Numbered from the stretch's first letter, positions 12,829 to 63,524 are shown. The stretch is DNA of 64,000 nucleotides from an uncultured delta proteobacterium (GCA_963847445.1 CAWJZV010000002.1:135127-199126); one strand, 5' to 3'. Notes: generated by a model not told the origin, from the letters alone. Translations and numbers: made by a program.

Positions 12829-12967
12829 TCCAAATCATAGACGAATCCGATCAAGCAATGACTGACCACGCACCTAACATTGCTAATGTGCGATCTGGAT
12901 CTACAACATTCTTTATTTCTGGTTTAAGCCTTGAATCATCTCTATCGAAGAGAACAGACCCCGTATA

Positions 12968-12983
12968 TTGGACCTTGGTCCAA
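12968..12983 (-). promoter_or_regulatory. Palindromic TF box, copy 1 (TTGGAC-N4-GTCCAA), upstream of the YidH gene
   Basis: tattggaccttggtccaata. On the minus strand TAGAGA follows 23 nt downstream. Confidence 0.7.
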
Positions 12984-13509
12984 TAACTAACCAGCGCTAA
13001 GACAATCGAGTCGCCTGCCGTCAACGACCCGAAGAAAGCTAGACAGGCGCTAGGAGACTCACAACCGAACTAATCCGTGCGGAGAATCCAATCCGCACGA
13101 CCGAACTTTCACCTGCGCGTCAGACCCAAGCCATTCGCTTCAATATTTCAACGGTAAGAATCGACGAATTTTCGCCATCAAGGGCGACTATCCGCACGGC
13201 GAGAACCCAATGATCCGGGTAGAAAAATGACACTGCCGGGCGGCGCGAGGCTCGTCCGGCAGGTTGAGGGCAGGCGGAATTTGATTTACTTGGCGGCCAG
13301 GGCTACGAATCCAGTATTAAGTCGGCTTTGCGCAGTAGCTACAGGAGCGGCTTTTCAGCTTGCGCTTGGTCATTTTTGACCTGGAGGGCGCACTCGCGCT
13401 TCGTCACCGGACACTTTGCCGCCGACCCTTCCTAGCCCATCGTCCCTTGGTTTCCTCGTGTTCGTCTACTTGTGATATTTCGATGATGGCTCGCTGGTCG
13501 AACGGCAGT

Positions 13510-14629
13510 CTAATTTACATCCTTACCGGTTTCGTCATTAACCGGCGCGGCAGTGGCCTCGCCCCCGACCACCGTCTCGGGAGGGCCGCCCGCGATCCAA
13601 GCATTCAATAAGGTATAGGCCACCGCGAGCACTACCGGACCGACGAACAACCCAATCACGCCGAAGGCAAACAAGCCGCCGATCACGCCGGCGAAGATGA
13701 GCAAGAGCGGCAGATCGGCGCCGCGCCGAATCAGTATGGGGCGCAAAAAATTATCCATCGTGCCGACCACCGCGGTCCACACCAAAAGCACCGTGCCCAA
13801 GCCGGCATGGCCAGCCCAGTACAACCAGATCACCGCTGGAACCAGCACCGGCATCGGTCCGATCTGCGCGATCCCCGATAACAGCATGACTGCGGTCAGG
13901 ATCGCCGCGTAAGGAATGCCGACCAGCGCCAGGCCGATGCCCGCAAGGACCGACTGGGTCACCGCCGTTACCACGACGCCGAGTGCCACGCCGCGAATCG
14001 CTTGGCCGGCGAGACGAATCGCGTTCTCGCCCTGCGGCGCCGCCAAGGCGCGCGGCGAATCGACGCACGGAATTGGCCGCTACCTCGCCGTTAAAATATA
14101 GAATCCCAGAAATCAGCAGCGTCAATGCGAAATGGAAAAGCATCAGTCCCAATCCGCCAACCTGGCTGATGAACCAGCGGAGGATATTGTCGACATACGG
14201 CAGTCCGTGGTCCGCCAACCCCGCGGCGCCGCCGGCCGCAAGCCGGCGCCACTCTGATGCGATCTTGGCACCGACTACGGGCAGACGCTCGACCCAATCA
14301 GGAGGCGGAGCTTTGGCGAAGGACACCAGCGACTTTGATCCAGCAACGATATCCAACGAGTGATCGACGACGGTGACGACCGCAAGGGTGATCGGCGCGA
14401 TCAGAATCATCATCGCGGCGGCGATCATGACCGTTACGGCGAGCCACCGATGGCCGCCTAGCCGGGACTGAACCCCAAGCAACAGCGGCCAGGTCGCCAC
14501 GACGATCATAATTGCCCAGATCAGCGCCAATAGAAACGGCTTGAGAATCCAGAAGGTGCCGCCCATGAGCAAGCCGATAAACAGTAACAGCAAAGTGGTG
14601 TGAGTCAGGTCGCGCGAAGAATGATTCAT
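13510..14629 (-). CDS. ydiK: AI-2E family transporter (YdiK-like), frameshifted
   Basis: FWILKPFLLALIWA...ATWP and DNFLRPILIRRGADLPLLLIFAGVIGG...GLFVGPVVLA. Indel near 14045. Confidence 0.85.
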
Positions 14630-14740
14630 TCAGCCCCTCCGGTCGGTCGATCTATTTTTTGATCGAACCCGCTACCGGGTTCTTAACCGATGATCACGTC
14701 GGTGCTTGCCGGTTTACTGTGAAAATGTCTGCACCACGCT

Positions 14741-17832: not shown

Positions 17833-19052
17833 CTAGAACAATATGCCGAACAGCTTTTTCAACAGCTCTTCGAGCGGCATCAGGGTGAGTAACAACGGCA
17901 CGATCGGCACCAATGTCGCGGCCGCGAGTCGGAGAATGGCATCTCTTGTTATCGGCGCGATTTGCATGGTCCGCACCACTTCGAAACTATTGCCCAGATC
18001 GGCGAGGGACTGGATGTCGCCGCTACCCACGAAAGGCTCATCGGCAGGCGCGCCGCCGCGCAGCCACTTGGCATCGAACTCGCGGACGTAACGCTCGGCC
18101 AGCGTGCCATATTCGCGATTGCCCGTCCGCTTCGCCTGCAGCCAGCTGCGGCGCGAACACCAAGAGCGGGCCGAGCACCATGCACAGTAAAAAGACCACG
18201 AGGACGGCGATCTCGACCTTGAAGTCAGGCAGCGCGGCGCCGAGATAGAAAATGCGATTGGCAATCATTCCGGCTAGCACTGCGCCATGCGCCACCGCCA
18301 GCGGCGTGAAGGCGTAGACCGTGTTGGCAAGAAATCCCAGGCCGCCGACCCGGTCCGGATGGGTGGGGACCAGGCTCAAGTCGATGCGCGACACCTGGCA
18401 GAGAAAGCGCATCCAGATGAACATCCGAAAGTACCAGCGCAGCATCAGGAACTGGAAGATCGGCAGGCTCACGTAGCCAAACCACATACCGCTGAGCGAG
18501 AGCTGCAAGCCCGCGGCGGTCGGCACCGCGTACCACGTAGCCGTGGCGAGCGCCGTGTAGTGGCGCCAGACAATCAGGACACCGACGCCATAGACGAAAG
18601 CGATCAGCAACACCTCGGCGAGGACTGAGTTGCGCAGCCGGAACGCCGATGCGATGACGGCATCGAACCGCGGCAAGGCGCTCTCGGGAATCAAATTGCG
18701 GTCGAGGAATTGCCGCACCACGAAACGCATGCGCTGGTGCACCACAAGCTCGGCAATGATAAACAGCGGCACCACCACCAGAAAGCGGACATGCACCTCC
18801 ATGTCCATCAGGAAGGGTACGGCCGCCTTCCCGCCCAGCGCCTGTCCTTCCAGAGCCGAGAGCACCAAGCAGCGGCAGCCAGGCGAACAGCGAGATGACG
18901 ATGATGCGTTGGCGCACTAGCTCCAGCGCGTCGCCGGACAGATGCGACCGACGGAAGAGCTGGTACAGCGGCCCACCCAGGACGAGGGAGAAGTCCGCCG
19001 GATGCCGGAGCAAATCGTCACTGGACTCTAATGTCGGGGATTTCATTTGCAA
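17833..19052 (-). CDS. Conserved hypothetical membrane protein, frameshifted
   Basis: DFSLVLGGPLYQL, HPDRVGGLGFL and GSGDIQSLADLGNSFEVV segments across three ORFs. Confidence 0.7.
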
Positions 19053-20939: not shown

Positions 20940-21290
20940 ATCGCAATCCGAAAACAATCCAGAAAACTCAAAATCCCAGAAATCCTGGAATCCAAATCGA
21001 AACCAAGCTTGTTTGGCGGTTTGTGTTTTTTGTTTATGATCGTTGAGAATTGTTTCGATCCACGGGCCGCTTTGGATTTAGAATTTCGTGCTTTCTTTGT
21101 GTTTGGGATCTAACAGGAGCCAACAGAGAAAACAGAGTTTCTTTGTAACTTCATCTCCGTTCGCTCCGTTGTCTCCGGTAAACAGAATCCGTGAGTGTTC
21201 GAGGGTCGGGTGTCAGGGGACGACCGCTCATCAACCGCCACTCGGCACCGCAGTTTCCCTCGACACTCGTCACTCGACACTCGTCACTTC
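20940..21290. repeat. Composite cluster of short-unit inverted repeats (AAATCC-type, 9-mer and heptamer families)
   Basis: aatccgaaaacaatccagaaaactcaaaatccc ... ttggatttagaatttcg; aacaggagccaacagag...ctccgtt; cctcgacactcgtcactcgacactcgtcac. Confidence 0.6.
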
Positions 21291-22238: not shown

Positions 22239-23720
22239 TTACACTTTCGTCAGCGCAAAAACCCGCGCGCTCCAGGCGCGCTCATCGAGATATAAACCGC
22301 GCCCTTGCAAATCGTTGCCATGCCAATCGTACGTCGCATCACCGAGCAAGTCCTGCAGCCGCCACTGGCTGGTGCCGAGATCGGCAAACGGCAGGCGCAC
22401 ATGGCATTGGCTCTGGTTCGGCGCATAGTTGACCGTCACCAGCAGCCGCTCGTCACCGGAGCCTTGCCAGGCAAAAGCGACGAAGCAATCGGAGGTCCAG
22501 TTGCCATCCCAGGCGGGAACGCATTCGAGCAGTTGCCAGTGACCGTCGCGTACGACGTCGTGGCGCAGCACGGCCAGCAGCCGGTCGTAGAATGTCTTCA
22601 CCCGCTCATCGACCGGCTCTTCCGGCGCGCGCACCAGATGCGGTGAGATCCGCTTCTTTCGCGCCTCGAATTGTCCCTGATGAAAGAATCGTAGCCCAGG
22701 CGACAGGAACGTAATGACGGCCGCGGCTTCATGAATTTCCGGTGAAAAAGTCGCGGCCGCCCGCGGCTCGTCGTGGTTTTCCAGGAAGCGCGCCAGTTTG
22801 TTCTGGTAATCGAGTCCAGCGTGGAAATGCTCGCGCACCGGCCGGGCATGACCCTCGCGCAAACGGTCGTACAGCCGCTTGTCGTAGGCGTAATCGAATC
22901 CCTGCTGCTGCATCGTCCATTCCATGTCCCAGTAGACTTCGGCCATGAACTGGAAACTCTGGATGTTTCCGGCGCGCGGCATCGGTCGCCTTCGGCCAGA
23001 AGAGCTCAGCGCGGATGCCCCACGTGCGTTCGAACACCTCGGGCAAGACCAGCATCGCCATGTCGCAGCGCACGCCGTCGCACTGTCCGGCGATTCTCTC
23101 CAGTTCGCCGATCATCGCTTGCTGCAATTCCGGGTTGCCGTAGTTGAGCTGCAGCGTATCGGGCCAGCCGTCGAAGTACGGGTCGCGGCCGTAGGCGAGC
23201 ACCGCTGACCCGTTTTTGGTCAGCGCCCGGCAGTAGTTCTGCGGTGCGCGTGCCAAATCACTCTCACTGCCGTGGACAAAGTAGTCCGGATGCGTGTCGA
23301 CCCAGGGATGATCCGGCGCCATGTGGTTGGGGACAAAGTCGAGCATCAGCTTTAGTCCGCGTTGCTGCAGCCGCTGGCGCAAACGCGCCAGCGCCGCGCG
23401 CCGCCGAGATCGCGATGCACGGTGTAGTTTTGGATGGCGAATCCGGAGCCGGCGATGTCTGCTTCTTTGAGATCCGCCAGCGTTTCCTGAAACTCCTTGC
23501 GCCATCCGGCGTTGCTGCGCGACACCGCCTGCGCCGCCGGGCCGGTCTGCCAAACGCTTAGGAACCAGATCCAGTCAAAGCCCATTGCGGCCAAGCGGTC
23601 CAGTTCGGCGTCGGGAATATCGTCCAGAGTCGCTGCCCGGCGCAACTTGCGCGACAATTCCGTCAGCCAGATGCGGGTGTTGATCTGATAAAGGGAAGCG
23701 TAGCGGGGACTGTTGGTCAT
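22239..23720 (-). CDS. GH13 alpha-amylase family glycosidase, frameshifted
   Basis: LYQINTR, LMLDFVPNH, DGVRCDMAML, AEVYW and RFLENHDEPR conserved regions. Confidence 0.9.
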
Positions 23721-23847
23721 AGAATTTTACCGACTGGAATTTTGCAAATAGGATTCTAACACTCCGATTTCGCCAAGATCATCTGGCGGTCATGACCGGG
23801 CCACCTCGATGCTGCAGAGAGAACCAAGCGAAGCACCATACGCGCCT

Positions 23848-24771
23848 TTACTTCCGGGTTATTTTGTAACCCCGGCTGTCGAGAAAATTGAAAGTCTGGA
23901 TAACCTGATTGGTCGGCTCGTACCCGCGGTAGGGAAAATAGCTTTGGATGATCGAGCTTTTCCACTTGGGATGGCCAGTGGCTCTAAGCTGATCGGCCGA
24001 GTTTAGGATGGCCAGAACCAGATGTTGCATCTGCGCCGCGGAGTTTGCATCCCGCTTGTCCAACCCCATAATCGACGCCGGCACGGCATAGGTTTCGGTA
24101 TCGGTTGCAGACCAAGGATATTGAGATTTCCCCAGACTCGTTCGTGCATAGATTTGCTCGAGTCCCGGGTTGGCCGGCAGCCGGACAAAATGAACCTTGC
24201 CGTCCAACTTGCCGATAAAGGGGACCGGCGCCCCGCCGACAAACATCACGGCATCGAGATTGCCCTGCTCCAGCTTTTTCATGGCATCGTCGAAGCTGTC
24301 GAAGGAAACCGTGGCCTTGATATCGTAGACGGACAAGAGCACCGCGGCGGTAATCGCGGTCCCGCCTCCCTCGGTGCCCACCGACACGCGCTTGCCTTCG
24401 AGCTGATAGAAAGTCTGGATGTCGCTCTTGTTGCTGAGCACATGTATTTCTTCGGGGTAAAGATTCAATACAACCTTGATGCTGTCGAAAAGATCCAAAT
24501 TCTGCTGTTGTTTGAGCACTTCGGAGACAAACCGCAGAGCGTCCAGCTGAACGATCGCCAGGTCTACCTTGCCGGTGCCGAGCAGCTGGATGTTTTCGAG
24601 GGAGCCTTTGGTAGGTATCACTTGAATCTCCATGCCCTCCTTGCCCGCCACATTCTTGATGTCCTGGGCAATCTGAAAATAGCTGCCATCCTTCGGGCCT
24701 GTGGCTATCGTCGCCGCCGACGCCGCCGACGCAACCAAGCTCAGAACTAGCGCTAAAAATATTTTCTTCAT
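23848..24771 (-). CDS. TAXI-family TRAP solute-binding protein (orphan)
   Basis: Signal peptide; TIATGPKDGSY, TKGSLENI, DLAIVQLD and LYPEEIHV. Start MKKIF after a GGAG RBS. Confidence 0.85.
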   Translation of the reverse strand: MKKIFLALVLSLVASAASAATIATGPKDGSYFQIAQDIKNVAGKEGMEIQVIPTKGSLENIQLLGTGKVDLAIVQLDALRFVSEVLKQQQNLDLFDSIKVVLNLYPEEIHVLSNKSDIQTFYQLEGKRVSVGTEGGGTAITAAVLLSVYDIKATVSFDSFDDAMKKLEQGNLDAVMFVGGAPVPFIGKLDGKVHFVRLPANPGLEQIYARTSLGKSQYPWSATDTETYAVPASIMGLDKRDANSAAQMQHLVLAILNSADQLRATGHPKWKSSIIQSYFPYRGYEPTNQVIQTFNFLDSRGYKITRK

Positions 24772-24850
24772 AAGCCATCCCTCCTTAACAATAATAACGG
24801 TTATTGGGGTCTGCCCGGCAAATCCTATAAAAAGGAGGCGAACTTTTGTA

Positions 24851-24866
24851 TTGGACTTTAGTCCAA
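24851..24866 (-). promoter_or_regulatory. Palindromic TF box, copy 2, upstream of the TAXI gene
   Basis: ttggactttagtccaa. TAGGAT lies 23 nt downstream on the minus strand. Confidence 0.7.
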
Positions 24867-24960
24867 CACTGATTGAACGTTCCCGAGCTATTGAAACATC
24901 GGCGCCCGCCGCCACTAGGTTCGCAGTTCCCAACGCCGACCGTAGCAGCGGCTCGCCGGC

Positions 24961-25335: not shown

Positions 25336-25400
25336 GTTATTCTCCTAGTGTTGGCATTATCCCTGAGAGACTGCCAAGAAAATTTTACGGACAACGTTTC

Positions 25401-25539
25401 TTGCGCGTTTAGGCAAGTGTCCGCTTCATGCATAGGTGACGTCGGAAAAATGCTAGACGCTGGTCTGACGAAACCTCTTCGCCGTAAAAGCCAGCACGTC
25501 GTCGCGCCATTATTCATCGCTGACGGCGGCTATTCTTTC
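25401..25539 (-). pseudogene. Degraded 3' remnant of a SpoIIAA-like (STAS/SEC14) gene
   Basis: ERIAAVSDE*WRDDVLAFTAKRFRQT.. then FPTSPMHEADTCL; aligns with the remnant at 63536-63731. Confidence 0.55.
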
Positions 25540-46036: not shown

Positions 46037-47434
46037 CTATGGCTGCCAGCCGCCGCCGAGCGCCCGGTAAAGTTGCACGACGGCAGTCAGCTGCGCGCCC
46101 CGCGCGCGTGCAAGCAACAGCTCCTGATCGAAGAGCTGCTGGTCCGCGATCAGAATTTCCAAATAATTTGCCAGCCCGGTGTCATAGCGCAGGCGCGACA
46201 GCCGCGCGGAATTGGTCAGGGCCTGAACGCTGATTTCCAACTCAGCGCGCACGTCTTTGAATTTCTCGACGCCCACAAGCGCGTCGGCAACCTCGCGGAA
46301 ACCGTTCTGTGCGGCTTTCTGATATTGCGCCACCGCCTGGTCGAATCGAGCTTTAGTCGCTTCGTAGTTGTAAAAGATGCGCCAGCCCTGAAAAACCGGC
46401 TGCAGTATGCCGCCGCCAATTGACCAAACGGCGGCGCGCCGGTCGATTAGGTTCGAGAGCTCGTGGCTGGCGCTGCCGAGCGCCGCAGTCAATGAAAAAT
46501 TTGGAAAGAACAGCGCTTTGGCGGCGCCGATATTGGCATTGGCCGCCAGCAGCAAATCCTCGGCGCCCTTGACATCGGGCCGACGCTCAAGCAATGCCGA
46601 GGGTAATCCTGCGGGTATGCTTGGCGGGTAATATTGATCCGTCAAAGCCGCGCCCCGAGGAACGGTTCCGGGGTTGCGACCGAGAAGAAAATTGATGAGA
46701 TTTTCCTGCGTCGCGATCTGGCGTTCCAGCTCCGGGATCGTCGACGCCGTGCGCGAACGGTTGGCAATCGACTGATCGAACTCCAGCCGGTTTGAGACAC
46801 CGCCGTCGAGCCGCCTACGGTAAAATGCCACAGTCTCGTCGTTAACCCGGAGCGTGCGCCGGGCTATCTCCAGTTCCAAATCGAGCTCGCGCAAAATGAA
46901 ATAAGACTGAGCGACGTCGGCGACCAAGGTGATAAACACGCCGCGCTGCGCTTGCTCCGTGGCAAGAAAAACTCCGGTCGCCGCTTCCGCTTCGCGGCGA
47001 ATGCGGCCGAAGACATCGAGCTCCCAGGCCATGCCAAATCCGAGCAGCCAGTTTTGAAAAGTACGGTTAGCGCCGAACGCCTGCGGCGGCTCGCTGAGCC
47101 GCGAGACTTGTTGCGCGCTGCCGCCGCCGCTCACGTTCACCTGAGGAAATAGAAACGAACGGGCAACACCGATTTGGAACCTTGCTTCTTCGACGCGCGC
47201 GGCAGCCGTCTGCAAATCATAATTGTTCCTCAATGCCTCTCTGGTCAGTTCCTGTAACGCCGGATCCTTGAAAACTTCCCACCAGGGAAGATCGGCGATG
47301 GACTCCGCCGCGGGCGCGCCGGCGACTCCACGGTGATTATCGGGAATTAGCAGTTTGGGCCGGAGATAATCCGGTCCCAGTGTGCAACCGGGAAGGAGCA
47401 ACATAACGATGGCGGTCAATGCGGTTCGCTTCAT
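46037..47434 (-). CDS. RND efflux outer-membrane lipoprotein (NodT/OprM family)
   Basis: Lipobox LPGC; WWEVFKDPAL, WELDVFGRIRR, LLERRPDV and LYRALGGGW. Confidence 0.93.
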   Translation of the reverse strand: MKRTALTAIVMLLLPGCTLGPDYLRPKLLIPDNHRGVAGAPAAESIADLPWWEVFKDPALQELTREALRNNYDLQTAAARVEEARFQIGVARSFLFPQVNVSGGGSAQQVSRLSEPPQAFGANRTFQNWLLGFGMAWELDVFGRIRREAEAATGVFLATEQAQRGVFITLVADVAQSYFILRELDLELEIARRTLRVNDETVAFYRRRLDGGVSNRLEFDQSIANRSRTASTIPELERQIATQENLINFLLGRNPGTVPRGAALTDQYYPPSIPAGLPSALLERRPDVKGAEDLLLAANANIGAAKALFFPNFSLTAALGSASHELSNLIDRRAAVWSIGGGILQPVFQGWRIFYNYEATKARFDQAVAQYQKAAQNGFREVADALVGVEKFKDVRAELEISVQALTNSARLSRLRYDTGLANYLEILIADQQLFDQELLLARARGAQLTAVVQLYRALGGGWQP

Positions 47435-47435
47435 C

Positions 47436-50400
47436 TCAATGCGCTCCCTCGGCTGATGGCGTGGCGGGAACCGCGCCTGGAACCGTTTTCTTTTTCCTTC
47501 TCAAGCCTTCGACAAATGCGAAGTTGCCCGGGATCAGGAACACTCCCAGAAAGGTCGCAACCAACATGCCCCAAAAGACCGCTGTGCCCATGACGTTCTG
47601 CGCGCCGGCGCCGGCGCCGCTGGCGATCATCAGCGGCACGACACCCAGGATGAACGCAAACGCGGTCATGAGAATCGGCCGGAAGCGCAGCCGCGCGGAT
47701 TCCAGGGCGGCCTCCTGCACCGCCATGCCTTCATCGTGTTTCGCTTTGGCGAATTCGACGATCAGAATCGCGTTTTTGGCGGCGAGGCCGATCAGCATGA
47801 TGTTGCCGACTTGGACGTAAACGTTGTTGTCGTAGCCCATCAGCCAGACGCCGAAGAACGAGCCCAGGACGACAAGCGGCGAGCCAAGCAAAACTGCCCA
47901 GGGCAGGCGCCAGCTCTCATACATAGCGGCCAGGAGGAGAAACACGAAAACGATCGCGAGGCCTAAGGTCGGTCCCGCCGGCGGCGCGATTTTTTCCTGA
48001 TAGGAAAGACTGGAATAGGCGAAGCCCAGCTCCTTTGGCATGGTCTGCTTGAAGACTTCCTCCAGTGCAGCCAGGGACTGGCCAGAGGTATAACCGCGGC
48101 CAGACACGCCGTTGATCTCGACCGAGCGAAACAGGTTGAAACGCACCGTGATCTCGGTGCCGCCTTCAGAGGATATGGTAACCAGGGTGGAAAGCGGGAT
48201 CATCGCGTTGGTGGTGCGGCTGCGCACATAAATATCACCGATGTCTTTGGGCTTGCGGCGGTAGTCGGCCTCGGACTGCACGTAGACCCGGAACAGACGG
48301 CCGAATCGGTTGAAGTCATTGACGTAGCTGCCGCCCATGCTTGCCGACAGCGCTTGAAACGCTTCGTTGATCGGCACCCCGAGCTTGCGCGCTTTCTCGC
48401 GGTCGAGATCGACTTTGACCTGGGGGTAGCGCGGATCGAAAGAGGTGAACAGGTTGCCGAGCTCAGGCCGCTTTCGCGCCGCGTCCATGAACTGACGGGT
48501 ATAGTCGCCGAGCTGCTGCACGGTGAGCGCGCCGCTACGATCCTGCAACAAAAAGTTAAAGCCGGCCGACGCGCCAAAGCCGGAGATCGTCGGAATGTTG
48601 AATGGAAAGACGATCGCCTCCGAAATATTCGCCACCTGCCGCTGCAAACTAGCCATGATGCCGCGCACATGGAGCGCATCGGAAGAGCGCTCATCCCACG
48701 GCTTCATCCGGACGAAAATCGTGCCGAAGTTGGGTTGATAGGTGCTAGTGACCACGCCGTAGCCGCCAATGGTCGAGAAAGAGTCGACGCCTTCGGTTTT
48801 GGCCAGGATCTGCTCGACCTGGGTTAGCACCCTGCCCGTGCGTTCGAGAGACGCCGCCGGCGGCAGCGTGACGTTGACACCGAAGATGCCTTGGTCTTCT
48901 TCGGGAATGAAGCCCGCGGGCAGCGCGGCGCCGAAAAGGCCGGCGCCGACCGCCACCGCGGCGACAATGACGATGGTAAGTATCGACCGTCGCACCAGCA
49001 GTTGTACGACGCCCATGTATGAGTTCGTGGTGCGATCGAATACGCGGTTGAACCAGCCGAAGAATTTTCCTAGCGGGCCTCTGGCCGGGCCGTGGTGCGG
49101 CTTGAGCAGCATGGCGCAGAGGGCCGGCGCGAGCGACAACGCGGCGAATGCCGAGAGCAACACCGATATGGCGATGGTCAAGGCGAATTGCTTGTACATC
49201 TGTCCGGTCAGGCCGCCCAGGAAAGCCACCGGGACGAAGACAGCCGATAGGATAAGCGCGATGCCGATAACCGGAGCTGAGACTTCCTTCATCGCCTGGA
49301 TGGTCGCTTCCTTCGGGTTCAGCCCATGCTCGATGTGATGCATCACCGCTTCGACCACGACGATGGCGTCGTCGACGACGATGCCGATGGCGAGCACCAG
49401 GCCGAACATCGAAAGCGTGTTCACCGAGAAACCGAGCATCGGGAAAAAAATGAACGTGCCGATCAGCGACACAGGCACGGTCAGGAGCGGGATGATCGTC
49501 GCGCGCAGGTTTTGCAGAAAAATAAAAACCACCAGCGTGACCAGGATGATCGCCTCGATGAAAGTATGGACGATGCCTTCGATGGAGGCATTGACCGCCG
49601 GCGTTGTGTCATAGACGATTTTGTAGTCCATGTCGGGCGGAAACAGCGCTTTAGACTGACGCAGCGTCTCATAGATCGCTTCGGAGGCCTTGAGCTGGTT
49701 TGCCCCCGGCAGCAGATAGATGGCCATCGTGCCGGATGGCTTGCCGTCGAGCCGTCCAAACGAGTCGTAGTTCTGCGAGCCGAGCTCGGCGCGCCCGACG
49801 TCCTTGACGCGGATCTGCGCGCCAGTCTCGGTCTGACGGAGAATGATGTTCTCAAACTCCTCAGGGTTGACGAGCCGCCCGGGGGCGCTCACCGTATAGG
49901 TAAACTCCTGGTCTTTCGGTGTCGGCGCGGCGCCGACGCGCCCGGCTGGCGCCTGCAAGTTCTGCTCTTTAATTGCCGAGATAACATCGGCAGGCGTGAG
50001 CGCAAGTTTGGCCAGCTTGTCGGGGCGCAGCCAAATGCGCATGCCATAATCGGCGCCGCCGAAAAGGTCGACCTGGGCGATGCCGGGGATGCGCAGCAGC
50101 TGATCGCGCAGATTGATGCCGCTATAGTTGGTCAAAAAGTTCGCATCGTAGCTCCCCTTGGGCGAGTGCACGGAGATCAGCATCAAAATGCTCGGGCTCT
50201 GTTTTTTGACCGTAACACCCTGCTGGACCACCTCCTGCGGCAGCCGTGCCTGCGCCGACGAGACCCGGTTTTGCGTCAGCACGTTTGCCGTGTCCTGGTC
50301 GACGCCGACTTCGAAGTTGACGTCGAGCTGCATGCGGCCGTCGCTGGTGTTCGACGACTTCATGTAAATCATCCTGTCGACGCCGTTGACTTCCTGCTCG

Positions 50401-50594
50401 ATCGGCGTCGCCACCGATTGCTCCACCGCCACCGCGGAAGCGCCCGGGTAGGTCGCCGTGACTCGAATCGACGGCGGCGCCAGGAAGGGATACTGCTCGA
50501 TGGAGAGACCGGTGAGACTGAACAGTCCCATTAGAACCATTAGGATCGAAATGACGATGGCGACGATGGGCCGGCGGATGAAAAAGTTTGCCAT
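47436..50594 (-). CDS. HAE1 family RND efflux permease
   Basis: FFIRRPIVA, LAIGIVVDDAIVVVE, GLAAKNAILIVEFA and RFRPILMT. Confidence 0.95.
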   Translation of the reverse strand: MANFFIRRPIVAIVISILMVLMGLFSLTGLSIEQYPFLAPPSIRVTATYPGASAVAVEQSVATPIEQEVNGVDRMIYMKSSNTSDGRMQLDVNFEVGVDQDTANVLTQNRVSSAQARLPQEVVQQGVTVKKQSPSILMLISVHSPKGSYDANFLTNYSGINLRDQLLRIPGIAQVDLFGGADYGMRIWLRPDKLAKLALTPADVISAIKEQNLQAPAGRVGAAPTPKDQEFTYTVSAPGRLVNPEEFENIILRQTETGAQIRVKDVGRAELGSQNYDSFGRLDGKPSGTMAIYLLPGANQLKASEAIYETLRQSKALFPPDMDYKIVYDTTPAVNASIEGIVHTFIEAIILVTLVVFIFLQNLRATIIPLLTVPVSLIGTFIFFPMLGFSVNTLSMFGLVLAIGIVVDDAIVVVEAVMHHIEHGLNPKEATIQAMKEVSAPVIGIALILSAVFVPVAFLGGLTGQMYKQFALTIAISVLLSAFAALSLAPALCAMLLKPHHGPARGPLGKFFGWFNRVFDRTTNSYMGVVQLLVRRSILTIVIVAAVAVGAGLFGAALPAGFIPEEDQGIFGVNVTLPPAASLERTGRVLTQVEQILAKTEGVDSFSTIGGYGVVTSTYQPNFGTIFVRMKPWDERSSDALHVRGIMASLQRQVANISEAIVFPFNIPTISGFGASAGFNFLLQDRSGALTVQQLGDYTRQFMDAARKRPELGNLFTSFDPRYPQVKVDLDREKARKLGVPINEAFQALSASMGGSYVNDFNRFGRLFRVYVQSEADYRRKPKDIGDIYVRSRTTNAMIPLSTLVTISSEGGTEITVRFNLFRSVEINGVSGRGYTSGQSLAALEEVFKQTMPKELGFAYSSLSYQEKIAPPAGPTLGLAIVFVFLLLAAMYESWRLPWAVLLGSPLVVLGSFFGVWLMGYDNNVYVQVGNIMLIGLAAKNAILIVEFAKAKHDEGMAVQEAALESARLRFRPILMTAFAFILGVVPLMIASGAGAGAQNVMGTAVFWGMLVATFLGVFLIPGNFAFVEGLRRKKKTVPGAVPATPSAEGAH

Positions 50595-50597
50595 GGC

Positions 50598-51836
50598 CTA
50601 TTTTCCCCCCGCTCCCTTGGCCTTGCTCTCGGCAGGCGGCGCACTTGCGGGAGGCGCACTTGCCGGCGGAGAAGGTGCTTCTTCGAGCTTCACCGTCTTG
50701 GCGCTGACCTGCACGCCGGGCTTCACCTTTTGCAGCCCTTCGACGATGACCTTTTCGCCCGGCTTCAGTCCTGAATCGATGACCCAGAGATTGCCGACCC
50801 GTTCGCCGGCTTTGACCATGCGCTGCTCCACCGTAGCATCCGGCTTCACCACCATGACGCTGTAGAGCCCTTGAATCTCCTGCACTGCGAGTTGGGGCAC
50901 CAACAGGGCGTCTTCTTTGAAATCGGTTACGAACCGGGCTTTCCCATACTGGCCTGGGCGGAGAACGCGCTGAGGATTGGGAAAGCTGAACTGCCCCGTC
51001 AGGGTGCCCGTGGCAGAGTCCACCGCCCGCTCAATCGCATCTAGCTTTCCTTTGTGCGAATGCACGGTTCCGTCCGCAAGGATCAGTTCGACGCCGAGAT
51101 TTTTCGCGCGGGAATTATCTTTACCGGCGCCGTCGCGCGCGAGTCTTAGATATTCCGCCTCGGCGATCGCGCAGCGGAACAAAATCGGATTGACCTGCGA
51201 GATGGTGTTGAGCAGCGTATTTTCACCGCGCCCGACCAAGGCGCCGACTTTCTTCTGCGTCGTGCCGATAAGCCCGTCAACCGGCGAAGTAACTGTCGTG
51301 TACGCGAGTTCGAGTTTGGCCTTGGCAACCAGGGCATCGTAAGCCGTGACCTGAAACCGCGCCGCCTCTTGAGCCGACAACGCATTGTCCAATTCCTGTT
51401 GACTTACCGCCTTCTGCTCGGCCAGCGGTTTGTATCGGGCAACATCGTTATTGGTCTTATCCAGGCGCGCCTGAGCCGTCGCCATGTTGGCCTGGGCTTG
51501 AGCCAATGCCGCCTCAAGCTGCTGCGGGTCGATCTTATAGAGGAGTTGGCCTTTTTTAACGAATGAACCCTCGGTGAAGTTGACGGAAGCAACGTAACCT
51601 TCCACGCGCGCACGGATCTCCACATCCTCCGAGCCCAGTGTGGCGCCGACCAGCTCGATATAAATGGGAACATCCTTCTGCACGACTTCGGTTACCTGGA
51701 CCTCAGGCGGCGGCGGTGGCGGCGGAGCCTCCTGCTTAGAACAGCCGACACCGACGGCTAGGAAAAGGCAGGGAACTAGCATCGACGATAACTTGACGGA
51801 CAGCCGTTGAATCAACTCGCAACTCTTAAAATTCAC
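50598..51836 (-). CDS. RND efflux periplasmic adaptor (MFP) lipoprotein
   Basis: GVGC lipobox; VEIRARVEG, VKKGQLLYKIDP, SPVDG and LRPGQY. Confidence 0.93.
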   Translation of the reverse strand: MNFKSCELIQRLSVKLSSMLVPCLFLAVGVGCSKQEAPPPPPPPEVQVTEVVQKDVPIYIELVGATLGSEDVEIRARVEGYVASVNFTEGSFVKKGQLLYKIDPQQLEAALAQAQANMATAQARLDKTNNDVARYKPLAEQKAVSQQELDNALSAQEAARFQVTAYDALVAKAKLELAYTTVTSPVDGLIGTTQKKVGALVGRGENTLLNTISQVNPILFRCAIAEAEYLRLARDGAGKDNSRAKNLGVELILADGTVHSHKGKLDAIERAVDSATGTLTGQFSFPNPQRVLRPGQYGKARFVTDFKEDALLVPQLAVQEIQGLYSVMVVKPDATVEQRMVKAGERVGNLWVIDSGLKPGEKVIVEGLQKVKPGVQVSAKTVKLEEAPSPPASAPPASAPPAESKAKGAGGK

Positions 51837-51909
51837 AATCGCCCTCCAAACTATGTCTGTGACCGCGATCTTAATTAGCGAATCTACCTAAGAACAGTAA
51901 GCTTTGCTA

Positions 51910-51925
51910 TTGGACTTTGGTCCAA
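51910..51925 (-). promoter_or_regulatory. Palindromic TF box, copy 3, upstream of the RND operon
   Basis: ttggactttggtccaa. TAGATT lies 23 nt downstream on the minus strand. Confidence 0.72.
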
Positions 51926-51938
51926 GCTTCGACAATTC

Positions 51939-52013
51939 TTAATAGCGCAGCCAAGTGCGCGCCTCGCTCAGACGCGACGCAGTGAAAAACTCGATCGCCA
52001 ATGGCAGATTGCC
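51939..52013 (-). pseudogene. 3' remnant of a SpoIIAA-like (STAS/SEC14) gene
   Basis: LAIEFFTASRLSEARTWLRY*; homologous at DNA level to 63536-63597. Confidence 0.55.
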
Positions 52014-52037
52014 TCCGAGGTCTAGATTTTAATTGCA

Positions 52038-53468
52038 TCACAGCAACGGGAAATCGTAGTTAAGAATAAATCGATAATCGTGCTGGCTGTTTTTGGGGCT
52101 TTGATACTGATGCACTCGGGAGTAACGGAATCGCCACGAGAATCCCTTGAGGAAACTCCATTTGGGCCGCCACTGAAGATCGGCGTTAAATTCGTTTTCA
52201 TCGGCGACGCCGGCCTTCGTCGATGGATTGACTCTACCCCAGCCATGAACGAAAAGTGCGTAGGCGGACACCCCTTCCAGCCCAAGACGAGAGAAGTCGT
52301 AAGATAATTTGGTGATAACGGCTTGTTCTTCCGCCCGATTGAAATCCTGTACCTGGACACTGGTGTAACCCGGATAGCCGCTCCACGGGCTTTGCATGTC
52401 ATCGCTGCGTAAAGTGTTGCTGTAACCGAGCGTGAAAACCGCGCCCCCATAACTCACATCGCCCTTCACGCCGACCTGATTGGTGGCGAACGAGCGACCA
52501 TTAAGGCGTTCCTTCCCGACACTGCGCTGATCGGAAATTTGGAAAGCCACCAACGCGCCGAGCTCCTTGGTGATGGGAAAGCTGTACTTGGTCTCGCTGT
52601 AGAAAATATTGATGATGTCGTTGGAATAGTAGTTGACAGCGCCGAGGGAAAACTTACCGTAGGTGAATGTGCCGCCCGCCACTGCGACGCCGCGCTCCAC
52701 GTCGGCGCCGGCGTCCTTCGACATCCAGACGAAGTCATCCGAGTTGCGCTCTTTGATCTTGGTGATGTAGCCGCCGCCGTAGCGGAATCCCGGTGCGCCG
52801 TCCTTGCCGCCAAAATTTCCCTGCAGTGTGTACCCTTCAAACGTGTTCGGCGTCATCCGGCTATCGTTCTTGCCGATGAATGGCGTGTTGTATTCGTACC
52901 GATACAGATTGACAACGTGATCTTCAAAAAGTTTTACCCGTCCATAGAGCTGGCCCAGCACGCTGTAACCATGCTGGCCCGGCTTGAGCAGCAGCGTGCC
53001 ATCCTTATCCTGCGGACCATAGAGGTTTTCCGACCAATAGAATGTCGTGCCAACCATCAGCCGATCAAGCAGCCAGCCGGACTGGTACGCCAGCGCGCCG
53101 CCCATCGCCCAGGCCGCGCTGACGCTGTCGTCGAACTTGTCGCGCTTGAAGTAGTAGCTGCGCAGATTGATGTCGAGCTTGGTATCGCGAAAAAACGCCG
53201 GCGTGTCCTTCAATTGGTCCTTGAGCCAGGGAAAAAATCCTGGCCGGGGAATTTTTTCAATGAAGGAGCGCTCGATGGGCGTGGAAATTTCATCGACCGA
53301 AGATGGCGTAGGTTCTTCCTGTGAGATCACCTCCTGCGCCCAACTCCGTGAAGCCGAGCCGAACAGCAGGAACAGGATCAGCGGCATCGTTAGAAATCCA
53401 AACATCGCGAGCGGCGCTAGCCGGCGCCCAATTGATAAAACCATCAATCGCCCTTTTTGCTCATTCAT
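52038..53468 (-). CDS. OprD-family outer-membrane porin
   Basis: Signal peptide; NLRSYYF, NDSRMTPNTFEG, DFNRAEE and C-terminal RFILNYDF beta-strand. Confidence 0.85.
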   Translation of the reverse strand: MNEQKGRLMVLSIGRRLAPLAMFGFLTMPLILFLLFGSASRSWAQEVISQEEPTPSSVDEISTPIERSFIEKIPRPGFFPWLKDQLKDTPAFFRDTKLDINLRSYYFKRDKFDDSVSAAWAMGGALAYQSGWLLDRLMVGTTFYWSENLYGPQDKDGTLLLKPGQHGYSVLGQLYGRVKLFEDHVVNLYRYEYNTPFIGKNDSRMTPNTFEGYTLQGNFGGKDGAPGFRYGGGYITKIKERNSDDFVWMSKDAGADVERGVAVAGGTFTYGKFSLGAVNYYSNDIINIFYSETKYSFPITKELGALVAFQISDQRSVGKERLNGRSFATNQVGVKGDVSYGGAVFTLGYSNTLRSDDMQSPWSGYPGYTSVQVQDFNRAEEQAVITKLSYDFSRLGLEGVSAYALFVHGWGRVNPSTKAGVADENEFNADLQWRPKWSFLKGFSWRFRYSRVHQYQSPKNSQHDYRFILNYDFPLL

Positions 53469-58689: not shown

Positions 58690-60387
58690 CTAGAGGATCA
58701 TGGCGAAATAACCAAATACAGTCAGCAAAACGCCAGAGACCGCATAACCGACCGGGAAACCGACCCACGGCACCGAGCTGTTGATTTCCTTGGCAGCCTC
58801 ACGACAGGGTCCAGAGTGCGACCGGGCGCCAGCGACACCGCCCATCAGAACCGCCGGGTTGACCTTAAAAACATGATAGCCAAGCGCCCAGGTGATAAAA
58901 GGTGGAATCGTGCTGGCAAGAAATCCGACGAGGAAAATCTTCAGTGCCACGGCCCCGGTGAGCTGTGCCAAAAGCGAGGCGCCGGCATTGATGCCGACGA
59001 TACCGACGAACGTGACCAGGCCCAAGTCCTCAAGGATGTTGCGCGCGGCATTGGGCGTGCTGCCGAAGAAGCGTAAGCGGGACACCGCCGACGACACGAA
59101 GATCCCCGATAGCAGCAGTCCGCCGGCGTTGCCCAACCCGACCGAGAAACCGCCCACCGGCACGTTGATGCCGCCAATAAGGAGTCCCAAAATCATGCCC
59201 ACCGACAGCGTGAGCAGATCGGTGCCCGTGCTCGGCCGCGCCACCTTTCCCATCACCGCGGCCACGTTCTCCACCGCGCTCTTGAGCCCGGCGACAAACA
59301 GCACGTCGAATCGTTGCAGCTGGGTGTCGGCGCCCATGGGGATCGGCACGCCGCCGCGCTCCATGCGCAGCAATTGAATCTGCCCGGCGAACTCCTCATG
59401 TCGGAACTCCTTGAGCGCCCGGCCTTCCAGGCTCTTCTCGGTGACCAGGATCTCCGCCTGGTCGAGCGGGATAGCCAGGGCCTTGGCGTCGGCTACCTCA
59501 GGGCCCAACAAACCCATGTTGGCCGTGAGATCCTCAAGCTTGCCGCCGAGAGCCACTACGTCACCTACCTGCATCGCCAGATCGGCGCTTGCGCCGAGTG
59601 CTTCTCCGCCACGCACGACATTGAGGATACGGTACTGCGGATAGCTTTGACGCAGTTGGGCGATCGTCTTGCCGGCGGTCTGTTGGTTCTCCAGGCGGTA
59701 GGCGCGCAGCCCGGCAGGTCGATAACCGGTGATGCCGGCGTCGTCGAGGTTCGGCACGCCGTGTTCCTCCTCATACTCCTTTGCGGCCTTGCGGGCATCC
59801 ACGCCCCACCACTTCGGTAGGTATTTGCAGACCAGGATTATGCCGACCGTCCCCCAGATGTAGGTGATGCCATAGCCGAGGGCGATCATCGCCGTCACAG
59901 CCTCGGCGGTGGATCCCGCCGGCACCTGGTATGCCCCCTGGGTTAGAGCCATCTCAGCCGTGCCGATGGCCGCCGACATGGTCTGGGAGCCGGCGAGGAC
60001 TCCCCCCACTGCGCCCGCCGGCAGGTCGAACAGGCGGCTCAGCACAACGGTGAGACCCAAGCCGAGGACGCTGCAGACCACCGCGAGGATGGTGAAGGTC
60101 AGGCCGTCCTTTTTCAGGCTGTTGAAGAACGATGGACCCACCCGCAATCCCACGCCGTACATGAACAGGTAGTACATCAGCGACTTGGCAAAGTTGTCGA
60201 GCTGCAGCTTGACGCCGTAGGTCGAAGCCCAAGTCGCCAGGACGACCCCAACGACGACCGCTGCCGCCACCATGCCCAAGCCGTACCCTTTGATCGTGAA
60301 CCGCCCGATCCAAACGGCCAAACCTACGGTGACAAACAAAAGGAGAAACGGATTGGTTCTGAGAAATTCAAAAAATGCTTCCATCAC
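58690..60387 (-). CDS. Second AspT/YidE/YbjL-family antiporter
   Basis: YLFMYGVGLRVGPSFF, GSQTMSAAIG, GYGITYIWG, TrkA-C domains and PWVGFPVGYAVS. Confidence 0.85.
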   Translation of the reverse strand: MMEAFFEFLRTNPFLLLFVTVGLAVWIGRFTIKGYGLGMVAAAVVVGVVLATWASTYGVKLQLDNFAKSLMYYLFMYGVGLRVGPSFFNSLKKDGLTFTILAVVCSVLGLGLTVVLSRLFDLPAGAVGGVLAGSQTMSAAIGTAEMALTQGAYQVPAGSTAEAVTAMIALGYGITYIWGTVGIILVCKYLPKWWGVDARKAAKEYEEEHGVPNLDDAGITGYRPAGLRAYRLENQQTAGKTIAQLRQSYPQYRILNVVRGGEALGASADLAMQVGDVVALGGKLEDLTANMGLLGPEVADAKALAIPLDQAEILVTEKSLEGRALKEFRHEEFAGQIQLLRMERGGVPIPMGADTQLQRFDVLFVAGLKSAVENVAAVMGKVARPSTGTDLLTLSVGMILGLLIGGINVPVGGFSVGLGNAGGLLLSGIFVSSAVSRLRFFGSTPNAARNILEDLGLVTFVGIVGINAGASLLAQLTGAVALKIFLVGFLASTIPPFITWALGYHVFKVNPAVLMGGVAGARSHSGPCREAAKEINSSVPWVGFPVGYAVSGVLLTVFGYFAMIL

Positions 60388-60461
60388 AAACTCCTATTTA
60401 CTCAGGGCCAAAGCCTTAGCCCTATCGCGGCAGCGCGAGAAACGGCTATGGCAATAGATCT

Positions 60462-63202
60462 TTAAATGTCGCCTTGTTTGCCTTTCCTCTTAGCCAGCAC
60501 TGCCGGCTTCAACAGCTTCAAACCGTGGGCGGCGTGATAACCGTGAATCTCTTTCACATCGAGCTTGCGCATGAACGTGATCGTATCGGCGGTGATGACC
60601 TGGCCCGGCACCATGATCGGAAATCCCGGCGGGTACGGAATCACGAAATTCGCCGACACCATCTCAGGGCCTTTCTTCAGCCGGTCGTCAATTTCTTTAC
60701 TGGCGAGCTTGATGAATTCGCAATTGGCGTCGTCGTAGGCCATGTAGAACGCCGGCCGCATATGGCCCTCGTTGCTCGCGCTCTTGGGTTTTTCCCGGAA
60801 AACATCGTGGAAGCGGCTGAAGTTCGGCAGGTCCGGCACATCGGTCATCAGCGATTTCACCCGCGCGGCAAAATCCGCCTGCTCTTCGCGGCCCAATTGG
60901 GCGAGGCGCAGCTCGATCTCGCGCGCTAGATCGGCGAGCACTTTGATCAGCAGCGCGCCGTCACTGCGCGTGTTGTTGATGTTAGTCTGGATCAGAATGC
61001 TGTTGCGCGAAGTTTTATTGATTTGAATATCGAAACGCTCCGCCAACAAGTTCTTGAATGCCGTGCCGTCGAAGCCTGCCGTGCCGCAGATCAGCGTCAG
61101 CCGGGTTGGGTCGAGAGCGAACTCGTCGTTGTTCCAGGCCTCGACGACGTCCCTCCAGTTGGAATTAGGCGGTCCATAGTCTTTGATCCCTGAAGCGCGG
61201 TACTCGGCCGGGACCATCTCAGCCGGGGTCGCGATATGAAAGTACTTGGAGATGAGCGGATGGTTGTTCACCTCGCGGCGAATTTTAAACGCCAGCTCGG
61301 TGGCTTTCATCGTCAGCTCGTAGCCCTCCAGCTCCATTTGCCGCCGGGCGATGTCCAGCGATGCGATAATCTGCTGGTTCGGCGAGGTCGAGGTATGCGT
61401 GAAGAAGGCTTCTTCGAATGGACCTTCGACGTGATGGAAGTCCTCGTCCCACACCAGAATGATCGAGCCCTGACGCAGCGCCGACATCGATTTGTGCACG
61501 GAGTTAGTCTGGTAGACGCGGATGCGCACTTTATCGGGGTCCGGCAGCAGGTGCATGTCGAGCAGCTTCGGGCTTTTTGGGTCGAGCTTGCCGGCCTTCG
61601 CGACAAACGCCTTGTACTCTTCACGATAGGCGGGATCGCGGTAGCGCTCCGTTAGCGCGGCCGCCGCGCCCATGGCCGTGCGCCGGCGGTGAAACGCGTT
61701 GAAGCGGGCGAAACCAAACCATGCTTCGTCCCAGAGGAAAATCAGGTCCGGCTTGATCGCGAGGCATTCCTCCATCACGCGCCTGGGATTGTACATGTGG
61801 CCGTCAAAGGTGCAGTTGGTCATGTCCACCGCCCTGACGCGATCGAGCGTGCCTTCGGCCTTGCAATCGAGCAGCGCTTTTTTGATCGTGCGCAGCGGCA
61901 CGGCGCCATACATCGAGTATTCGGTCAGCGGATAGGCTTCGACATAATAAGGCTGCGCGCCCGCCAGCACGAAACCATAGTGGTGCGATTTGTGGCAGTT
62001 GCGGTCGACGATCACGATATCGCCGGGCTTGCAGATCGCCTGCACGACGATCTTGTTGGATGTCGACGTGCCGTTGGTGCCGAAGTAGGCGCGCTTGGCG
62101 CCGAACGCCCGCGCCGCGTACTCATGGGCTTTCTTGATGTTGCCGGTGGGTTCGAGCAGACTGTCCAAGCCGCCGCTGGTCGCCGACGACTCGGCGAGAA
62201 ACAGATTCATGCCGTAGAATTGGCCCATGTCGCGGATCCAGTTGGAGCGGAAGATCGACTTGCCGCGCGCCACCGGCAGCGCATGAAACGTGCCGATCGG
62301 CCGTTGCGCATAGCGTTTGAGATTGGAAAAAAACGGCGTGTCGTAGCGATCATTGACGCCATCGAGGACCGAGAGGTGGACCTCCATGATCTCTTCAACG
62401 CTATGGAAGATGCGCCGGATCGGCGCGACCATGTCACTGCCGGCGATTTTCTCAGCGCCTCGATCAGTGAGCAGATAGATGTCCAACTCGGGGCGATAGT
62501 TCTTAATTAACCGGGCGAGCGTCGTCGCCAGCGCCCCAGGCGCAATGGCGGCCGGATCGACATTCGCATTGCGCACTAGAAAGTCGCGCATCATCGGCAG
62601 CTCATGGTGCGAACGGAACTGGAAGCCGTCGTAAATGACGACGGCTTGGACATTGTGGTTGAAGATCGTGCCGATGACGCCGTCTTCGAAGCTGCCGACC
62701 TGGACGATCTCGTAATGAAAAATATCTTCCGGGCGGCGCAGGCGCTTCAGATCGTTACGCGCCCGTTCCCAGGTGCTCGGGTCGTTGGGCGTCACCACCA
62801 GCACTTCGAAGTACGGCTTGCGGCTCTCGCCCGTCTGGCCGTCCGGCGGCAAGACATCGAGCGGGCGGGCCTCGCTTTCTTGCAGCGGGTCCCAAGCACC
62901 GCTGTCGTGGCGGTAACCGCCGGTCAGCAGCGAATTGGAAATCTTTTGCACGAGCCGCGCGAACACGCCGGCGTTGGCCTCGCCGAGCGATTCCCGAACA
63001 GTCGCCATCAGACGCGGTCCGGGTAGGCCCAATAGCTCTCCAGCGGGCTGATTTCTCGCCAGGAGCTGTGCCGCCTCGGCGAGCAATTTGTCCGCAGGCT
63101 GCCCTTGAGCAATTGCAGATTCCCAGGCTCGCCCTACGTGTTCATCTCGCACCAGCGATCGATTCTCGCCTCAGCCGCCGAAAAGAAATCTTTGAGATCC
63201 AT
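60462..63202 (-). CDS. Large Orn/Lys/Arg-type PLP-dependent decarboxylase, 5' frameshift
   Basis: FHALP, GGLDSLLEPTG, TNGTSTSNK, DRNCHKSHHY, WDEAWF, PLP lysine in TNSVHKS, HTSTSP and IPYPPGFP. Start MDLKDFF after an AGGAG RBS; indel near 63135. Confidence 0.9.
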
Positions 63203-63508
63203 GATTGTTTCTCCTACTTGGTAGATTTAACGCACACGCTTTGCTCTTTTGTCTTATTTCTTAATAAGGCCAAACCAACCATTCGTCGCGCCGTGCCGCA
63301 CCAGCGAAACTCTCGAGGTCAATAACAAACTCCCAACGATGATTAATTGAGACCTGCACGAACCATTTGTTTCCTCTCCTTCGAGTACTCACCACCAGTT
63401 TTTTCAGCGAGCCGGAAAATACCTTTGGTTGCCGAGCCGGATGGCATTCGAATCTCGTCGACACACAGTAAGTGAAATTGTCTTAGCGAATTTCGAAAAG
63501 AGTTGATA

Positions 63509-63524
63509 TTGGACTTTGGTCCAA
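63509..63524 (-). promoter_or_regulatory. Palindromic TF box, copy 4, upstream of the decarboxylase operon
   Basis: attggactttggtccaat. TAAGAC lies 23 nt downstream on the minus strand. Confidence 0.72.

Follow-up and report, generated by a model that had tools for sequence, protein, structure and literature searches.

The LOV-helix-turn-helix (HTH) protein EL222 of Erythrobacter litoralis is a light-activated transcription factor and is widely used as an optogenetic tool. In the available part of one report, its 12-bp DNA consensus is given as RGNCYWWRGNCY and its C120 operator as TAGGTAGCCTTTAGTCCATG (PMC10521638). The available text of a second report describes an EL222 site that replaced the lux box, overlapping the -35 element, and gave a light-activated sigma-70 promoter in E. 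coli, whereas the same site placed between -35 and -10 led to repression (PMC5001607). The lux box at luxI is a 20-bp inverted repeat over the -35 element of a sigma-70 promoter, where the bound dimer contacts RNA polymerase (PMC5001607). At promoters activated by DevR (DosR), a NarL-subfamily response regulator, the proximal site overlaps the -35 element (PMC3029386, available part), and the DosR/DevR consensus is a 20-bp palindrome, TTSGGGACTWWAGTCCCSAA (PMC2275270, available part). Here we describe a palindrome, TTGGAC-N4-GTCCAA, hereafter the box, which occurs four times in a 64,000-nt stretch of DNA from an uncultured delta proteobacterium (GCA_963847445.1, CAWJZV010000002.1:135127-199126), hereafter the window. 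The four copies are probably operators of a response regulator of the FixJ/StyR subfamily that is encoded outside the window and activates transcription from a position abutting a weak -35 element.

The pattern TTGGACNNNNGTCCAA has exactly four matches in the window (Table 1). Matches to this pattern averaged 0.00 in dinucleotide-preserving shuffles, 0 of 100 of which contained any, and the palindrome that a first-pass annotation had reported at these four places is confirmed. With up to two mismatches to the box pattern, only two extra poor matches appeared, and their total was reached or exceeded in 3 of 100 shuffles. Allowing up to three mismatches to ATTGGACNNNNGTCCAAT added a single match at 40481-40498; this was rejected as a weaker copy of the box, since the resulting total of five was within chance (reached or exceeded in 6 of 100 shuffles). 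A 12-position scan of the window likewise gave no convincing further box, the candidate at 58558 having a centre that does not fit. Read on the minus strand, sites 1 to 4 consist of TTGGAC, then CAAG, TAAA, CAAA and CAAA, respectively, then GTCCAA, and each is followed by TA, which reproduces the consensus proposed earlier for the transcribed strand, TTGGACYAARGTCCAATA. All four boxes are intergenic according to a rough gene list, in which 12.5% of the window is non-coding (chance probability about 2.5e-4), and each lies upstream of a minus-strand transcription unit. The hexamers beginning with TA that had been noted exactly 23 nt after each box were all recovered, with the coordinates given in Table 1.

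Comparison of the box with the known operators shows that its core, GGACYWWRGTCC, fits all 10 specified positions of the EL222 consensus, and that the right half of the C120 operator, TTTAGTCCA, is identical to box 2 (both as given in the available part of PMC10521638). Relative to the consensus given there for EL222, the box extends further and has a higher degree of symmetry (ATTGGAC-N4-GTCCAAT). The central 12 bp of the DosR/DevR consensus as available, GGACTWWAGTCC, have 10 positions in common with the box; the other two fall within the Y and R of the box and are identical to box 2. The outer positions differ, being TATT and AATA in the box and TTSG and CSAA in the DosR consensus. The sequence of the lux box is unrelated. 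A search of open full text with the exact 16-mers, the 14-mers and the written forms of the motif returned nothing relevant.

To investigate the occurrence of the box in other genomes, a species-genome scan was run with the query TTGGACYWWRGTCCAATA, which comprises the box and TA on one side. The matches listed comprise at least 124 loci with 127 sites, 80 of the 124 with 2-kb flanks and the remaining 44 with about 300 nt per side. All were ascertained by the exact core, so that core variation, and conservation as opposed to mere complementarity, cannot be judged from them. The record labels include Binatia, 'delta proteobacterium', Syntrophobacteraceae, Acidobacteriota, Verrucomicrobia (Verrucomicrobiota), Rokubacteria, Gemmataceae and Bacillota, as well as Alpha-, Beta- and Gammaproteobacteria, with several Paraburkholderia, Burkholderia and Caballeronia. 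In the flank left free by the query, A adjoins TTGGAC in 97 of 124 ascertained sites, compared with about a quarter expected by chance, and approximately three quarters of the matches are therefore copies of one conserved element. The full 20-bp palindrome, TATTGGAC-N4-GTCCAATA, is present in 44 of the 127 listed sites. The motif proper is thus a palindrome that reaches beyond the box, (T)ATTGGAC-N4-GTCCAAT(A). The symmetry extends into the free flank and gives two half-sites of 6-7 bp separated by a short spacer, which fits an HTH dimer. The nearest relatives of the window among the listed loci belong to Binatia and 'delta proteobacterium' assemblies and are 76-83% identical by blastn (closest: L051, L075, L046, L022/L023, L056 and L036).

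The spacing between the box and a putative -10 element was examined in both flanks of each listed site, giving 253 arms. The dinucleotide TA occurs at offset 23 in 73 of the 253 arms and at offset 24 in 25, compared with about 9 at other offsets. The hexamer TAnnnT occurs at offset 23 in 41 arms and at offset 24 in 18, compared with 0-7 elsewhere, except at offset 0, where TA directly adjoins the box. In 92 of the 127 listed sites, TA lies 23 or 24 nt from the box on one side or both. The spacing noticed in the window is therefore the dominant feature at other genomic sites, and its dominance across the 124 listed loci makes it a property of the element across phyla, and not of the window alone. 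A gene start lies within 350 nt ahead in 30 of 41 listed arms with TAnnnT, compared with 34 of 99 arms without it. Few of the copies lie deep within genes: of 85 sites in the listed loci with 2-kb flanks, 79 do not, and only 6 are located more than 90 nt into an open reading frame (ORF) of at least 150 aa. The first five bases after the box on the -10 side are T, A, G/T, A/C and C in the listed matches. To judge from their sequence, they form a poor -35 hexamer, abutted by the box and separated from the -10 element by 17 bp. The centre of the box is about 31.5 bp before the -10 element, and the conserved 23-nt spacing would place it about 43 bp upstream of the inferred transcription start. The class II activator-type position proposed in the first-pass annotation is supported in that the geometry relative to the -10 element is conserved across the listed loci, the start position being deduced from it.

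We hypothesized that a LuxR-type HTH dimer, most probably a phosphorylated response regulator of the FixJ/StyR subfamily, would occupy each box. The regulator would be partnered with a PAS histidine kinase, the gene being elsewhere in the genome. The 16-bp core would end at the poor -35 element (TA K M C n), followed by the 17-bp spacer and a -10 element of the type TAnnnT, and the bound dimer would recruit sigma-70 RNA polymerase, in the manner of a class II activator, to promoters that are too weak alone. Four units would thus be switched on together: the DUF202 and MscS genes, the gene for the TAXI-like protein, the RND efflux operon, and the decarboxylase gene with the amino-acid exchanger genes. 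Binding to the box is predicted, with indirect support from the EL222 consensus; activation rather than repression, the transcription starts and the signal are likewise predictions. In the first-pass annotation the signal was proposed to be hypoxia or acid stress, with possible read-through into nrfHA.

The same protein family might instead act on the same site as a repressor or dual regulator, keeping RNA polymerase off the -35 element until a signal arrives. The box does touch the -35 position, and EL222 represses from a site within the promoter core (PMC5001607, available part). We consider this unlikely. The promoters lack a good -35 element, and none at site 3 was called as a sigma-70 consensus promoter (neither such a promoter nor a terminator was called at 51700-52100), which is a signature of activator dependence. 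In the available text on EL222, the site that abutted or overlapped the -35 element from upstream activated, and only placement between -35 and -10 repressed (PMC5001607), and the DevR promoters with the same overlap of the -35 element are activated (PMC3029386, available part).

Genes for proteins with a receiver domain (REC) and a GerE/LuxR-type HTH domain recur beside the box, with the gene end next to it, in a Pfam scan of 259 ORFs flanking the listed sites. An HTH profile was built from 11 of these box-adjacent regulators and used in a six-frame search of every listed locus at a threshold of at least 100 bits. Seventeen of the 124 listed loci reached this score (Table 1); three of them, L020, L027 and L030, are orthologues from Bacillota and represent a single lineage. 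The 3' end of the regulator gene is at most 200 nt from the box in 14 of these 17 loci. In 9 of 10 regulator-adjacent loci with 2-kb flanks, the -10 element points away from the regulator gene, toward the next gene. PAS-HisKA-HATPase kinase genes usually precede the regulator gene; the closest matches of the kinase cores are FixL or AtoS. About 20 listed loci have a gene for a single receiver domain directly downstream of the box. The guess of a LuxR/NarL-family regulator, made from the window alone, is thus supported by the gene neighbourhood in 17 of the 124 listed loci, and co-occurrence of the box with a NarL/FixJ two-component pair was seen at such loci, in the form of a PAS kinase and a REC-HTH protein. 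The guess that the regulator is encoded outside the window also stands: neither Pfam on 62 ORFs nor six-frame searches with REC and HTH profiles found a REC or GerE gene of this kind in the window.

The 11 aligned regulators come from several phyla, are 43-56% identical, and have an invariant recognition helix, E-K-T-x-K-V-H-R. Their closest sequence relatives are FixJ of the rhizobial FixL/FixJ system and StyR of the Pseudomonas StyS/StyR system, which share the order of a PAS kinase followed by a REC-HTH protein. The best solved structures are StyR (1yio, E = 4.7e-57) and FixJ (5xso, 1.6e-41), and the best NCBIfam model is FixJ. All 11 scored 163.7-230.0 bits, below the cut-off of 255 for NF006900, and were therefore rejected as FixJ equivalogs. 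The helix EKTxKVHR also differs from PRTVEVHR in S. meliloti FixJ and EVTVKVHR in StyR, and we know of no FixJ or StyR operator with the sequence of the box. The HTH domain alone best matches FixJ and then EL222. EL222 has a LuxR-type HTH with a near-identical recognition helix (SEKTVKMHRGLVMEKL, compared with SEKTIKVHRAKVMQKM in the L062 regulator), and this match, with the fit of the box core to the EL222 consensus as available, also supports the LuxR/NarL-family assignment. EL222 is a one-component LOV photoreceptor, in contrast to the box-adjacent proteins, which contain a receiver domain and are encoded after a PAS histidine kinase; LuxR is likewise a one-component regulator, and binds an autoinducer.

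The resemblance to the DosR box noted in the first-pass annotation holds for the core of the DNA motif and fails for the proteins. The box-adjacent HTH domains score 30-33 bits against DevR and 67 bits against FixJ, and the regulators are FixJ/StyR-like. The box-adjacent kinases are of the PAS-HisKA type, in contrast to the GAF-containing DosS/DosT kinases, and no member of the universal-stress-protein family was found by Pfam among the 259 flanking proteins. Membership in the DosR/DevR regulon was rejected, as the outer box positions, the regulator type and the target content are all unlike. As far as the sequences indicate, the box and its regulators share a mechanism and a motif class with DosR but do not belong to its regulon.

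The box could also be read here by a LuxR-type HTH protein outside the two-component class, such as a one-component LOV-HTH sensor or an orphan regulator. The nearly identical helix of LOV-HTH EL222 and the shared motif class would fit such a reader, as would the lack of a visible regulator gene in the window. This is nevertheless improbable, because all 17 HTH-bearing neighbours among the listed loci carry a FixJ-type receiver, none is a LOV-HTH protein, and the single receiver genes found just behind the box in about 20 listed loci point to phosphorelay control.

Far less probable is a role of the palindrome as a hairpin in RNA or DNA, either as a terminator or processing site of the upstream gene or as a REP/MITE-like repeat. 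The boxes in the window do fold as hairpins of 6-10 bp (-8 to -12.4 kcal/mol), and boxes 3 and 4 come 11-13 nt after a gene remnant. Against this, the hairpins have no T-run, no terminator was called at site 3, and no Rfam family matched in a search of the window. Sites 1 and 2 have unrelated flanks outside the 20 bp, and specific bases are kept in the query-free flank, beyond what complementarity would require. Across many phyla the box is tied to a -10 element at 23 nt and to the 5' ends of genes, unlike a terminator or a mobile repeat. Folding of the 328-nt leader of the decarboxylase gene is no more stable than that of shuffled sequences (z = +1.25). That the four copies are functionless leftovers of segmental duplication in the region, which the 60-nt repeat next to boxes 3 and 4 might suggest, is largely refuted by divergent flanks (sites 1 and 2 have only the box and its geometry in common with the other sites, and the spacers of sites 3 and 4 have diverged around an intact box), by the conserved free flank, and by the same box and spacing in unrelated phyla.

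Several observations weigh against activation of the four units by a FixJ/StyR-type regulator. The window lacks such a regulator, the source genome is not among the listed loci, and the presence of the protein in the organism is assumed. No regulator is visible in 107 of the 124 listed loci, although 44 of these offered only 300 nt per side. A further 35 of the 127 listed sites have no TA at offset 23 or 24, and two of the four hexamers in the window, TAGAGA and TAAGAC, lack the T at position 6 of the -10 element. All four transcription starts are predictions from the -10 positions. Sites 3 and 4 are not fully independent, having the neighbouring 60-nt repeat in common, and the ascertainment by exact core hides core variation and the choice between sequence conservation and complementarity. 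Finally, a site in a position abutting the -35 element can also repress.

Table 1. Boxes, putative -10 hexamers, genes and gene remnants in the window (positions counted from its first nucleotide), and listed loci with a regulator gene.
Feature	Coordinates or loci	Strand	Remarks
Box 1	12966..12985 (16-bp core 12968-12983)	(-)	Perfect 20-bp palindrome TATTGGACCTTGGTCCAATA
Box 2	24851..24866	(-)	Exact pattern match
Box 3	51910..51925	(-)	Exact match; in L051 and L023 the HlyD gene has the orthologous box upstream
Box 4	63509..63524	(-)	Exact match; 357 nt upstream of the decarboxylase gene
Putative -10 TAGAGA	12939..12944	(-)	23 nt after box 1; inferred start near 12932
Putative -10 TAGGAT	24822..24827	(-)	23 nt after box 2; inferred start near 24815, 44 nt before ATG 24771
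Putative -10 TAGATT	51881..51886	(-)	23 nt after box 3; inferred start near 51874
Putative -10 TAAGAC	63480..63485	(-)	23 nt after box 4; inferred start near 63473
DUF202 (YidH-type) gene	12499-12828	(-)	Pfam; downstream of box 1; DUF202 also behind the box in L079
MscS-type channel gene	9346-11952	(-)	Pfam; 546-nt gap after the DUF202 gene; unit spans 9346..12828
NMT1_3 (TAXI-like) solute-binding protein gene	23848-24771	(-)	Pfam; signal peptide; downstream of box 2
HlyD-type adaptor gene	50598-51836	(-)	Pfam; first gene of RND efflux operon 46037..51836, box 3
AcrB-type pump gene	47436-50594	(-)	Pfam; RND efflux operon, box 3
Outer-membrane factor (OEP) gene	46037-47434	(-)	Pfam; RND efflux operon, box 3
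Orn/Lys/Arg-type decarboxylase gene	60462-63152	(-)	Pfam; 896 aa; downstream of box 4
Asp-Al_Ex/TrkA_C exchanger gene	58690-60387	(-)	Pfam; after the decarboxylase gene
SpoIIAA-like (STAS) gene, 3'-end remnant	51940..51999	(-)	Stops 13 nt before box 3
43-codon ORF, SpoIIAA-like (STAS) C-terminal part	63536..63667	(-)	Stops 11 nt before box 4
Regulator-bearing loci	L002, L020, L026, L027, L030, L033, L040, L049, L055		
Regulator-bearing loci, continued	L059, L062, L068, L083, L090, L105, L111, L112		

The genes downstream of the box in the listed loci were compared with those in the window. HlyD/RND genes lie downstream of the -10 side in L023, L051, L053 and L078; in L051 and L023, relatives with 76-83% identity, the box is kept at the gene orthologous to that behind box 3. 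A DUF202 gene is likewise found behind the box in L079. The decarboxylase locus L008 has its best -10 element two bases further out. No TAXI gene was found behind a box in relatives among the matches listed. Box 2 and the TAXI-like gene lie, together with a DUF3568 gene, in a 1.9-kb segment of the window (23698-25614) that L056, an otherwise collinear relative, does not have; this target was therefore gained with its box in one lineage or lost in the other. Single receiver genes are found downstream in L020/L027/L030, L047, L049 and L071, and SBP_bac_3 genes in L005 and L018. HdeA is encoded directly downstream in L019 and by the second gene in L009; similarly, Asp-Al_Ex is encoded directly downstream in L075 and by the second gene in L022. 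DUF3300 genes (L039, L040), genes for a pyridine-nucleotide disulphide reductase with a rhodanese domain (L016, L031) and an OmpA gene (L034) also occur. G6PD (L046), EipA (L060), NhaA (L006), phospholipase D (L021), aquaporin (L042) and sulfatase (L026) genes were found at one locus each, as were the DUF202 gene of L079 and the SpoIIAA-like gene of L069/L070. Judged by the gene annotations, the list has a flavour of envelope and pH homeostasis. The orthologues of EipA-like, Asp-Al_Ex (54317) and G6PD genes in the window lack a box at the matching places, unlike those of the relatives, which shows that the wiring of the regulon differs between close relatives.

The target set of the Bacillota loci L020, L027 and L030 is unlike that of the proteobacterial and Binatia loci. 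Here, genes for a PAS kinase and a FixJ-like regulator are followed by the box and then by genes for a single receiver, desulfoferrodoxin and pyruvate:ferredoxin oxidoreductase.

In the window, the surroundings of boxes 3 and 4 include a 60-nt repeat (family D7), with copies at 51940-51999 and 63537-63596 that are 78% identical and lie just upstream of the boxes. In L051, an intact SpoIIAA-like gene is present between an OprD gene and the box, which identifies the copies at sites 3 and 4 as remnants. The spacers after boxes 3 and 4 are unrelated to each other. Beyond the exchanger gene downstream of the decarboxylase gene, the minus strand carries further transporter genes as far as OprD at 52038. 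A short ORF of 22 codons, from an ATG at 63200 to 63132, has a good ribosome-binding site and ends, in a different frame, within the annotated GTG start region of the decarboxylase gene. This ORF encodes either a leader peptide or, after a frameshift, the true N-terminus of the decarboxylase.

Between the DUF202 and MscS genes downstream of box 1 are two arrays of a 7-nt unit (CTCGTCA / CTCGACA and the complement), at 11968-12016 and 12442-12479, which form inverted arms of 29 nt, 83% complementary and 433 nt apart. A third copy, at 21256-21288, is 96% identical over 27 nt and lies downstream of the EipA-like gene. The arrays could represent a small mobile insertion or a further regulatory repeat. 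Several genes in the window are represented by overlapping split ORFs in different frames: an AI-2E transporter (13510-14629), an unnamed protein (18038-19052), an alpha-amylase/GlgE-like protein (22239-23720), a GH63/MGH1-like hydrolase (26291-28460), and an SDF symporter fused to SBP_bac_3 (29986-31864). The last is one ORF in L023 and L078, where it is cut by the locus edge (647 aa visible). These split ORFs are either pseudogenes or assembly indel errors. A GAF-domain protein (3-773) runs off the left end of the window; its N-terminal part resembles those of sigma-54 activators (FlhA/NifA models), and it was rejected as a DosS-type kinase. In L033, the gene directly behind the box encodes a sigma-54 activator.

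The region had been described as an island in the first-pass annotation. The present results do not bear this out: G+C content is 0.55-0.65 without a step, no integrase is among the Pfam hits, no credible tRNA was found, and many segments of the window are collinear with relatives by blastn, contrary to what is expected of an island. The sole tRNA call, a tRNA-SeC predicted by ARAGORN at 3996-4077 (+), lies inside a 1028-aa ORF on the minus strand (3138-6224) and is probably a false positive.

The system proposed here is of a known kind, and its mechanism is not new; what is unusual is the breadth over which the operator and the promoter geometry are conserved. A wider reading, which we put forward tentatively as a serious possibility, is that the box marks an undescribed regulon that crosses phyla and is controlled by one orthologous FixL/FixJ-like system with an EL222-type recognition helix. 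Its targets would form an envelope and pH-homeostasis stress programme, which in this Binatia-like genome would be concentrated in one 50-kb stretch. The recurring targets include RND efflux, Asp/Ala-type exchangers, the decarboxylase, HdeA, DUF202, a Na+/H+ antiporter, OmpA/EipA and G6PD, and the single-domain receiver gene may be the first target, acting as a feedback element. If this holds, one short DNA word would connect a single sensory system with many unstudied bacteria of soil and sediment, including Candidatus Binatia, which to our knowledge has no cultured member. The box also has cultured carriers, among them strain NaphS2 (L062), Mesorhizobium sp. YM1C-6-2 (L105) and members of Paraburkholderia, and for these the wider reading would supply a candidate regulator together with its predicted regulon and promoter design. 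It would also give a natural context to the DNA specificity of EL222, and offer a portable activator-promoter pair.

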